In this document: positions 2,919-3,444 of the stretch, piece after piece
How the letters are laid out: every line of letters begins with the position of its first letter
Numbering within the stretch: position 1 is the stretch's first letter
From: a virus
Length of the DNA stretch: 64,000 nucleotides
IMG/VR virus record: IMGVR_UViG_3300017971_000265
Location: 1 to 64,000 of that record
Direction: 5' to 3' (one strand)
Made by a program: the position numbers and the translations under genes
Notes under the pieces: model-generated
Databases searched by the model: none
What the model saw: only the letters and a program-made list of their open reading frames with translations
What the model was told of the DNA's origin: nothing

Positions 2919-3252
2919 GGGAGAGTGGGCCTTTTTTAAAAAACTGGCATATAGCAGAGAGCAGCAGTTGGCTTTTTTTGATCGCTTGCAGGAGATGAAG
3001 GTTCCAAGGAAGAGACGGATCGCATATGCAGCAGCCATTTCTCTTGTTACCGTAATAGAGGAAGCGGCTGGTTCTTTAGACGTCTTCTTCGATGGGGGGT
3101 TGTGTATTTTTTATGGTGGTCAGTGTGAGAAGTGCATTGGGAGATCTCGTATGGGGGGGTGTTCGTTTTGTGGGCATAGCAAGGATAGTGTGAGGAATGT
3201 TTGCGAGGTATATAGGAAAGCTTTCAACACGGTAAGAAGAGGTAAGGAATGA
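2908..3252 (+). CDS. Cys-rich hypothetical protein; C-terminus TVRRGKE encoded by element E2
   Basis: CEKC and CSFC motifs; overlaps the upstream stop region. Confidence 0.6.
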   Translation: MRLKGEWAFFKKLAYSREQQLAFFDRLQEMKVPRKRRIAYAAAISLVTVIEEAAGSLDVFFDGGLCIFYGGQCEKCIGRSRMGGCSFCGHSKDSVRNVCEVYRKAFNTVRRGKE

Positions 3253-3358
3253 GACTAGTCTTAGCCGAGACTAGCGGGAGACATCGATGTTGCTTGGGGA
3301 CGTCGAGCCCGGAAGTCCCGCATTGGGAAAAGACTTGGCGAGATGGAGATTTCCAAGG
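3229..3358 (+). repeat. Dispersed element copy E2 leader (structured, contains anti-repeat)
   Basis: Near-identical to 6027-6156, 6774-6888 and 7208-7337. Confidence 0.95.
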
Positions 3359-3444
3359 GTCTTTTCCACATGCGTGGAAGGTTGCGATCATCCGGCGGGT
3401 GGGTGCACCCTGGAACGTCTTCTCCACACATGCGTGGAGGGTTG
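3359..3444 (+). CRISPR. CRISPR-like mini-array: 2 repeats, one 32-bp spacer
   Basis: GTCTTTTCCACATGCGTGGAAGGTTG (3359-3384), spacer 3385-3416, GTCTTCTCCACACATGCGTGGAGGGTTG (3417-3444). Confidence 0.6.

Follow-up and report, generated by a model that had tools for sequence, protein, structure and literature searches.

What is the structured leader that heads the short repeat arrays of this virus, and which protein could it serve? The stretch analysed here (hereafter the window; 64,000 nt) covers the first 64 kb of a virus contig that is 77.9 kb long and has an estimated completeness of 46%. Its genes include those for a T4-like portal, prohead protease, major capsid protein and tail sheath; the capsid protein matches its best counterpart from an isolated phage at ≤33% and those of related IMG/VR contigs at up to 71–78%. 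The first-pass annotation had described the leader as a structured RNA whose anti-repeat pairs with the first repeat, had set it against the leaders of type I arrays, and had proposed a tracrRNA-like scaffold fused in cis or, alternatively, a conformational switch that governs processing. All the motifs that it quoted were located in the sequence.

Leader copies at gene junctions

A search with the hairpin 1 motif returned seven plus strand matches and one decayed copy (E1) in the window, with no further copy at 64–78 kb of the contig and none on the minus strand. Together with two copies on an adjoining contig, L070 (see below), this gives ten leader copies (E1–E8, U1 and U2; Table 1). Each lies between two genes of plus strand operons, and in several cases the element itself supplies the stop codon of the upstream gene (GGAA-TGA) and the Shine-Dalgarno site of the downstream gene (GGAGG, within the repeat). 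The copies share a common plan, in which hairpin 1 is followed by stem 2, closed by GC pairs and enclosing an inner helix, and then by a GAAG linker and an anti-repeat rich in purines. Six of the eight window copies continue with a loop and then the first repeat, which is paired with the anti-repeat almost from end to end; this pairing also takes up the 3′ arm of the repeat’s own hairpin. Repeats are 26–28 nt long and spacers 32–34 nt, with a single exception of 21 nt, while E1, E3, E7 and E8 are spacer-less. E7, which lacks the stem 2 module, and E1, with its decayed hairpin 1, may be dead copies, and E3 is a candidate for a free tracr form. No array variants were detected across the contigs of two DNA runs (apparently one data set), which yielded identical pieces, broken at the repeats.

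Table 1 Leader copies and associated features, in window coordinates unless prefixed L070 (adjoining contig)
Feature	Position	Strand	Description
Overlap with L070 end	1..123	+	123 nt identical
Promoter-like motif copies	1627-1680; L070:6180-6235; L070:10022-10065		Each before an operon with scaffold copies
E1	2467..2564	+	Hairpin 1 decayed, stem 2 and anti-repeat intact, no repeat; runs into ATG 2565; R1 44.8 bits
E2	3255..3384	+	Full scaffold and repeat 1; R1 154 bits
E2 hairpin 1	3255-3274	+
E2 stem 2 including inner helix	3275-3311	+
E2 GAAG linker	3312-3315	+
E2 anti-repeat	3316-3338	+
E2 loop	3339-3352	+
E2 CCAAGG and repeat 1	3353-3384	+	Repeat 1 = 3359-3384
E2 spacer and repeat 2	3385..3444	+	Spacer 32 nt, repeat 2 = 3417-3444; start codon of next gene 3455
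E3	4477..4560	+	Scaffold and anti-repeat, no repeat; runs into start of DNA methylase gene; R1 69.9 bits
E4	6053..6243	+	Scaffold, repeat 1 (6157-6182), 33-nt spacer, repeat 2 (6216-6243)
E5	6784..7039	+	Scaffold, repeats 6889-6916, 6951-6978 and 7012-7039, two spacers; ATG 7043
E6	7234..7412	+	Scaffold, repeat 1 (7338-7363), 21-nt spacer, repeat 2 (7385-7412); ATG 7428
E7	11357..11440	+	Hairpin 1, anti-repeat, repeat 1; stem 2 module deleted; ATG 11441 adjoins; R1 27.5 bits
E8	34512..34644	+	Full scaffold, one repeat; ATG 34645 adjoins
TnpB-family gene	L070:6770-8635
Leader U1 and 6 repeats	L070:8656-9104
Leader U2 and 3 repeats	L070:10268-10520		1.6 kb downstream of U1

The coding strand of the window is the G-rich plus strand, save for two clear minus strand genes at 890-1626 (154 aa and 76 aa) that have a promoter, TTGACA-17-TACTAT, at 1626-1598. 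This pair diverges from the plus strand early promoter, and the arrangement may constitute a regulatory switch. Elsewhere in the window, intein splicing domains were found within a 1038-aa ORF (14402-17518), where a LAGLIDADG domain is also present, and in the T4-like portal gene (24111-26858), the portal match scoring 30.2 bits, below the Pfam cut-off of 35.8. A 1661-aa ORF at 17530-22515 has no Pfam match, and a GAAGACGTCGAGTTGGATGAGG-like DNA motif recurs many times in it. Three 117-nt tandem repeats (98% and 82% identical) lie in a coding region at 59450-59800. No tRNA was called by ARAGORN in the window, and a scan against Rfam gave no family there and only a tmRNA on L070.

A TnpB-family nuclease on the adjoining contig

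No cas gene was present among the window ORFs. A scan of the metagenome for hairpin 1 returned one relevant contig, L070, whose last 123 nt are exactly positions 1-123 of the window and whose composition is the same as that of the window; one L070 spacer was present in the same sequencing run at a depth equal to that of the window. The overlap, the matching composition and the spacer depth thus identify L070 as the probable upstream continuation of this phage. On these three lines of evidence the effector gene, which lies on a contig other than the window’s own, would belong to the same genome, with the eight window copies 5–47 kb away from it.

L070 encodes a 621-aa protein of the TnpB family, with a score of 226 bits against the NCBIfam guided_TnpB model (cut-off 100); it also scores 131 bits against the C2c8/V-U2 model, which is under that model’s cut-off. 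Pfam OrfB_IS605 and TNB domains are present, the RuvC residues D, E and D and the zinc finger align with those of ISDra2 TnpB, and the catalytic D-E-D triad is intact. An AlphaFold model (pLDDT 74, with most of the core >85) gave ISDra2 and ISFba1 TnpB as the best fold matches (TM 0.74–0.80), followed by AsCas12f, LaTranC and Cas12p. Two features are additional to this core: an N-terminal extension of 145 aa, in which a zinc-ribbon-like motif is present, and, behind the first RuvC segment, an insertion of ~85 aa. Among TnpB homologues P0002 and P0003 come nearest, at 57–59% identity, and searching IMG/VR with the nuclease returned no relative. Pattern searches of IMG/VR with hairpin 1 or with the repeat pair likewise yielded nothing relevant.

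Leader U1 begins 21 nt past the stop codon of the nuclease gene and shares its strand; behind it come six repeats with five unique spacers of 33–34 nt, in regular repeat-spacer units of 61–62 nt. A RuvC effector of TnpB descent with a downstream repeat-spacer array, the arrangement of type V and TranC systems, is thus present. Directly behind this array is an S-adenosylmethionine decarboxylase-like gene (L070:9135-9482), and genes for a LexA-type DNA-binding protein and an Rv2179c-like 3′-5′ exoribonuclease lie further upstream on L070. A phage-encoded tmRNA (Rfam RF00023, 90.6 bits; L070:10524-10875) starts 4 nt past the last repeat of U2. The tRNA-like T-arm motifs GGTTCGAATCC and GGTATCAAATCC occur in non-coding DNA beside the tmRNA (L070:11050-11250; window 60-130 and 270-340).

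A promoter-like motif, AAAAAAGAACTTGCGTTC, occurs in three copies, ahead of the nuclease operon, of U2 and of the operon that holds E1 and E2. It consists of an A-tract, GAACTTGCGTTC, a gap of about 15–17 nt, and then TATAGT, TATATG or TACAAT. Given these motifs, the RNAs would be made within polycistronic transcripts.

Type I arrays are served by cas3, Cascade and cas6, and their leaders are AT-rich and unstructured. The leader described here is structured and has a GC content of 54–57%, its apparent partner is a type V/TnpB-like nuclease, and the ORFs scanned on L070 and the window’s contig (about 89 kb) contained no type I, type II or type VI cas gene; type I was therefore the wrong frame for it. 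A tracrRNA of the type II kind works with Cas9 and RNase III. This identity was rejected, as no Cas9 was encoded in the same set of ORFs and the neighbouring nuclease is TnpB-like. The scanned ORFs (L070, the window and the rest of its contig) also contained no TnpA, Y1 or serine transposase, and no Cas1, Cas2 or Cas4.

Fold of the leader and covariation with cellular tnpB loci

Hairpin 1 comprises 8 bp and is invariant among the copies, apart from the decayed E1, in keeping with its earlier description as a shared element. The variants of the inner helix are real and all remain paired if G-U is allowed: AU/UG in E2 and E4, GU/CG in E5 and E6, and full Watson-Crick pairing in E3 and E8. The need for G-U pairs fits a plus strand RNA rather than DNA. 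RNAfold z-scores were −3.1 for E2 and −3.9 for E4; E5 and E6, with −0.8 to −1.2, fold no better than shuffled sequence. Ten near-identical copies are on their own insufficient to prove a structure.

The proposed pairing of the anti-repeat with repeat 1 was borne out energetically: the predicted energy of the duplex is −15 to −29 kcal/mol, whereas the repeat’s own hairpin reaches −5 to −11. The duplex is 20–27 bp long and imperfect; TCCCGCAT forms part of this last stem, its partner being ATGCG-TGGA of repeat 1. The change of both arms together in E4 proved not to be specific to that copy. When each anti-repeat was paired with the repeat of every copy, the mean was −22.3 kcal/mol on the diagonal and −23.7 off it, so the anti-repeat pairs equally with the repeats of other copies and the changes in E4 are not a specific compensation. 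Copy-specific covariation of an anti-repeat with its own repeat was rejected on this basis. The purine and pyrimidine tracts of the two strands slip and wobble. The anti-repeat also pairs with the later repeats of the arrays (mean −21 kcal/mol, compared with −13.4 ± 3.2 for shuffled repeats), which can alternatively fold a 7-bp hairpin of their own that resembles the short stem 4 of the cellular relatives described below.

We built a covariance model, R1, from seven phage copies only. Within the phage it matches just the ten known copies. No copy was found in the related phages L001–L008 and G001–G005 by blastn, DNA search or R1, and the system is restricted to one phage lineage among the phages compared. 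One of these, G001 (142 kb), encodes an ordinary 391-aa TnpB (L132, G001:C1:138879-139979; 350 bits) with a different C-terminal end; the 3′ end of its gene has no R1 match above 1 bit and no array. Cellular homologues of the nuclease (33–43% identity) were collected from genomes of Planctomycetota and Chloroflexota, giving 31 loci. Of the ~26 loci that contain the gene end, 13 gave a coding-strand R1 match lying across the stop codon of tnpB (13 of 35 matches overall). Individually these matches are weak (8–22 bits), and the chance probability of a match at that spot is ~2%. Relative to the stop codon, their 5′ ends lie at −18 to −72 (one at −124) and their 3′ ends at +13 to +58 in twelve cases and −36 in the thirteenth.

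A joint alignment of five phage and ten cellular sequences, fitted to model R1, was 95.1% paired against 65% for shuffled sequences, and 39 of 43 pairs change on both sides; controls in which the partner strand was slid along gave 32–48%. Covariation therefore extends to the larger alignment that the first-pass annotation had named as the check on its structured-RNA claim. Its nested stem 2 is also real, whereas the outer pairing given for it, GCGGGA/TCCCGC, is weak in the wider alignment (73% paired, 66% when shuffled) and was rejected as the conserved helix: stem 2 is closed by CGGG/CCCG, which is 96% paired with four of four pairs changing on both sides.

Folded alone, each of the cellular sequences has the same plan of hairpin 1, nested stem 2, purine linker, stem 4 (mostly with a UUUA loop) and an AGUGU/AGUCG tail. 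Among these relatives the loop of hairpin 1 and the tail covary as the two strands of a pseudoknot (GACG/CGUC, GACA/UGUC and GGCGA/UCGUC), and an equivalent, UAGCC/GGUUG, is possible in the phage RNA. The cellular loci carry one scaffold, with no second copy of the 3′ module within 570–900 nt, and their stem 4 is shorter than that of the phage by ~48 nt.

A probable guide scaffold and its alternatives

The R1 matches at tnpB ends, the covarying joint alignment and the same plan in separately folded sequences lead us to conclude that the leader is probably an omega-RNA-type guide scaffold for the 621-aa TnpB-family nuclease encoded on the adjoining contig. The earlier suggestion of a tracrRNA-like scaffold fused in cis is supported, since the TnpB-family gene ends 21 nt before a leader and the leader has a covarying architecture in common with the omega-RNAs of that TnpB clade. 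A conformational switch, offered there as the alternative, need not be invoked; the competing helix, GCGGGA/TCCCGC, is without comparative support. Hairpin 1 would be omega-RNA stem 1, its UAGCC loop forming the pseudoknot with the GGUUG tail at the 3′ end of the repeat; stem 2 and the inner helix would be stems 2 and 3, and the duplex of anti-repeat and repeat 1 an elongated stem 4. The repeat would then provide the 3′ strand of stem 4 and the pseudoknot tail, with the guide coming next, so that scaffold, repeat 1 and spacer 1 together would make up a natural single-guide RNA bound by the nuclease. Later repeats would hold the 3′ module only and would depend on a scaffold supplied in trans, with E1 and E3, which have no repeat, as candidate sources; another possibility is that the 7-bp hairpin of the later repeats themselves replaces stem 4. 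Guide RNAs would be transcribed as parts of polycistronic early and late messages, cut out of them, and then direct DNA cleavage of targets. The spacers matched no target in 50,697 phage records (INPHARED), in the relatives or in the phage’s own genome, a limited search that leaves room for targets elsewhere, and no TAM or PAM was found.

One alternative makes the locus primarily a selfish or homing element, a role that is compatible with a guide scaffold and differs in what is taken as primary. The copies would be non-autonomous omega-RNA cassettes that use the start of the 3′-flanking gene as guide; co-infecting relatives without the insertion would be cut by the nuclease, and repair by recombination would copy the cassette in, a form of RNA-guided marker exclusion. 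TnpB of IS200/IS605 elements natively works by such homing, with flanking DNA as the guide. The placement of the phage copies exactly at gene junctions, where they supply a stop codon upstream and a Shine-Dalgarno site downstream, agrees with this, as do the four spacer-less copies. The gene behind E7 has no homologue in related phages, so only the junction of E8 could be compared. There, E8 is an insertion relative to L006, L003 and L004, in which a plain stop codon, Shine-Dalgarno site and ATG follow one another, and the 24–29 nt behind its repeat match those relatives at 24/24, 26/29 and 19/20 positions. This junction fits insertion and allows homing with the flanking gene start as guide. 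However, this single junction has been remodelled and not just cleanly split, the relatives differ in the bases 5′ of the target, and no TnpA or other transposase is encoded in the scanned ORFs. We therefore regard a primary homing role as unlikely. A nuclease-independent function in mRNA processing or translation, as an RNase III-type site or as a mask over the Shine-Dalgarno site in the repeat, seems improbable to us. Sites of the RNase III type occur between the early genes of phage T7, every copy described here lies between genes of a plus strand operon, the duplex has the length and imperfection noted above, and in E5, E7 and E8 the sole Shine-Dalgarno-like GGAG(G) is in the 3′ arm of the repeat, 5–8 nt before the ATG. 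Such a function would nevertheless leave unexplained the homology to tnpB-linked omega-RNAs, the regular 61–62-nt units with unique spacers, and the presence of a copy immediately after the tnpB-like gene.

The scaffolds and solitary repeats might instead act as RNA decoys that sequester a host Cas or TnpB protein, in the manner of RNA anti-CRISPRs or viral sgRNAs. The copies are numerous and some are spacer-less, and two preprints report phage-encoded repeat mimics and fused crRNA-tracrRNA decoys directed against Cas9 (bioRxiv 10.64898/2026.06.01.729453, 10.64898/2026.06.03.729762). We consider this very improbable, because the phage itself apparently encodes a cognate nuclease with a predicted intact active site, and because a search of 185,579 GTDB species genomes with the repeat core, using a strict pattern, gave 45 single chance matches and no array. 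Leader-repeat hairpins are also known to block extraneous crRNAs in type VI and II-C arrays (PMC13187072, PMC12080349), and an ordinary CRISPR leader could merely silence an extra repeat in this way. In the phage arrays the guide lies 3′ of the repeat, so the first repeat has a real spacer and the extraneous one is the last; the leader carries a whole omega-RNA plan beyond an anti-repeat; and the type I, II and VI cas genes are absent from the ORFs scanned. An ordinary leader is accordingly the reading to which we give hardly any credence.

IS200/IS605 elements have one guide each, which is the DNA flanking the transposon end, together with TnpA and transposon ends. The phage has neither TnpA nor recognisable transposon ends (in the ORFs scanned), and its arrays hold 2–6 repeats with unique spacers, while the cellular relatives are single-copy. 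In the omega-RNA of ISDra2, stem 1 is stacked with a pseudoknot, and ‘tracrRNA-like’ and ‘crRNA-like’ halves are linked through a tetraloop, making a ‘natural sgRNA’ (PMC10097598). The phage scaffold has the same order of parts (PDB 8H1J, 8EXA), with a stem 1/pseudoknot loop, nested stems 2–3, purine linker, stem 4, tail and 3′ guide; U1 likewise follows its nuclease gene in the same orientation; and the nuclease has the core fold and D-E-D triad of ISDra2 TnpB. It differs in that the scaffold begins after the stop codon, not inside the gene, in the ~48 nt added to stem 4, in the tandem arrangement of the 3′ module with 32–34-nt spacers, and in having ten copies, nine of them away from the gene; the protein differs by its 145-aa extension and ~85-aa insertion.

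The guide scaffold proposed here also resembles that of TranC systems, transposon-CRISPR intermediates whose omega-RNA is split (Jin et al., Cell 2025, pmid 41027434, as relayed in PMC13565253, PMC13639567 and bioRxiv 10.64898/2026.03.27.714800). As far as these accounts describe them, both have a TnpB-like effector, a short downstream array and no adaptation genes, both would derive the guide RNA from an omega-RNA through opening of the last stem, and the phage insertion is at the site of the enlarged bridge helix reported for TranC clade 3. The phage has the unsplit form (scaffold with repeat 1) beside split forms (later repeats and repeat-less scaffolds), in which it differs from TranC as related there. 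LaTranC is among the fold matches of the nuclease, the likeness to TranC being one of features and fold. TnpB-derived type V systems of phages include Cas12r of Thermus phage Lalka (bioRxiv 10.64898/2026.04.20.719267), the Cas12p ‘hacker’ (bioRxiv 10.1101/2025.01.20.633832) and CauTranC9, with which the present locus shares its setting in a phage genome, a TnpB-like nuclease of 500–700 aa, ~29-bp repeats in short arrays behind the gene, and the absence of cas1 and cas2. Cas12r reportedly works without a tracrRNA and Cas12p uses a separate one of 118–185 nt, and for neither have scaffolds fused in cis, or copies scattered among gene junctions, been reported.

Type V arrays have been proposed to originate from omega-RNA segments that were duplicated serially, and Sigma-TnpB and V-U variants show omega-RNA arrays, a re-fused tracrRNA and half-repeat, and multiple omega-RNA copies (Altae-Tran et al. 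2023, PMC10691335). The phage locus fits that proposal. Those proteins are nuclease-dead and cellular, with whole omega-RNAs duplicated, whereas the phage nuclease looks active from its residues, only its 3′ module is in tandem, and whole scaffolds are dispersed in the genome. A more far-reaching reading, which we hold to be doubtful, is that one phage genome preserves the steps from omega-RNA to CRISPR array together with RNA-guided homing. The steps would be an unsplit scaffold-guide, tandem duplication of the 3′ module into repeat-spacer units, and free scaffolds as possible tracrRNAs; the spacer-less copies would take their guide from the start of the gene behind them and direct the cutting of related phages that lack the cassette.

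The principle has already been published; what the locus adds is a variant that is well anchored and does not amount to a new class. New here are the fused and split forms side by side, the long stem 4, the extended effector and the ten copies at gene junctions. An odd ‘structured leader’ thereby becomes a guide-RNA design open to testing, for a compact phage nuclease that carries an uncharacterised extension of 145 aa. Fused (omega-RNA) and split (tracr and crRNA) guides would coexist naturally in the locus, as the serial-duplication model would expect (PMC10691335; TranC), and the ten junction copies raise the question of whether guide cassettes spread in phages by RNA-guided homing.
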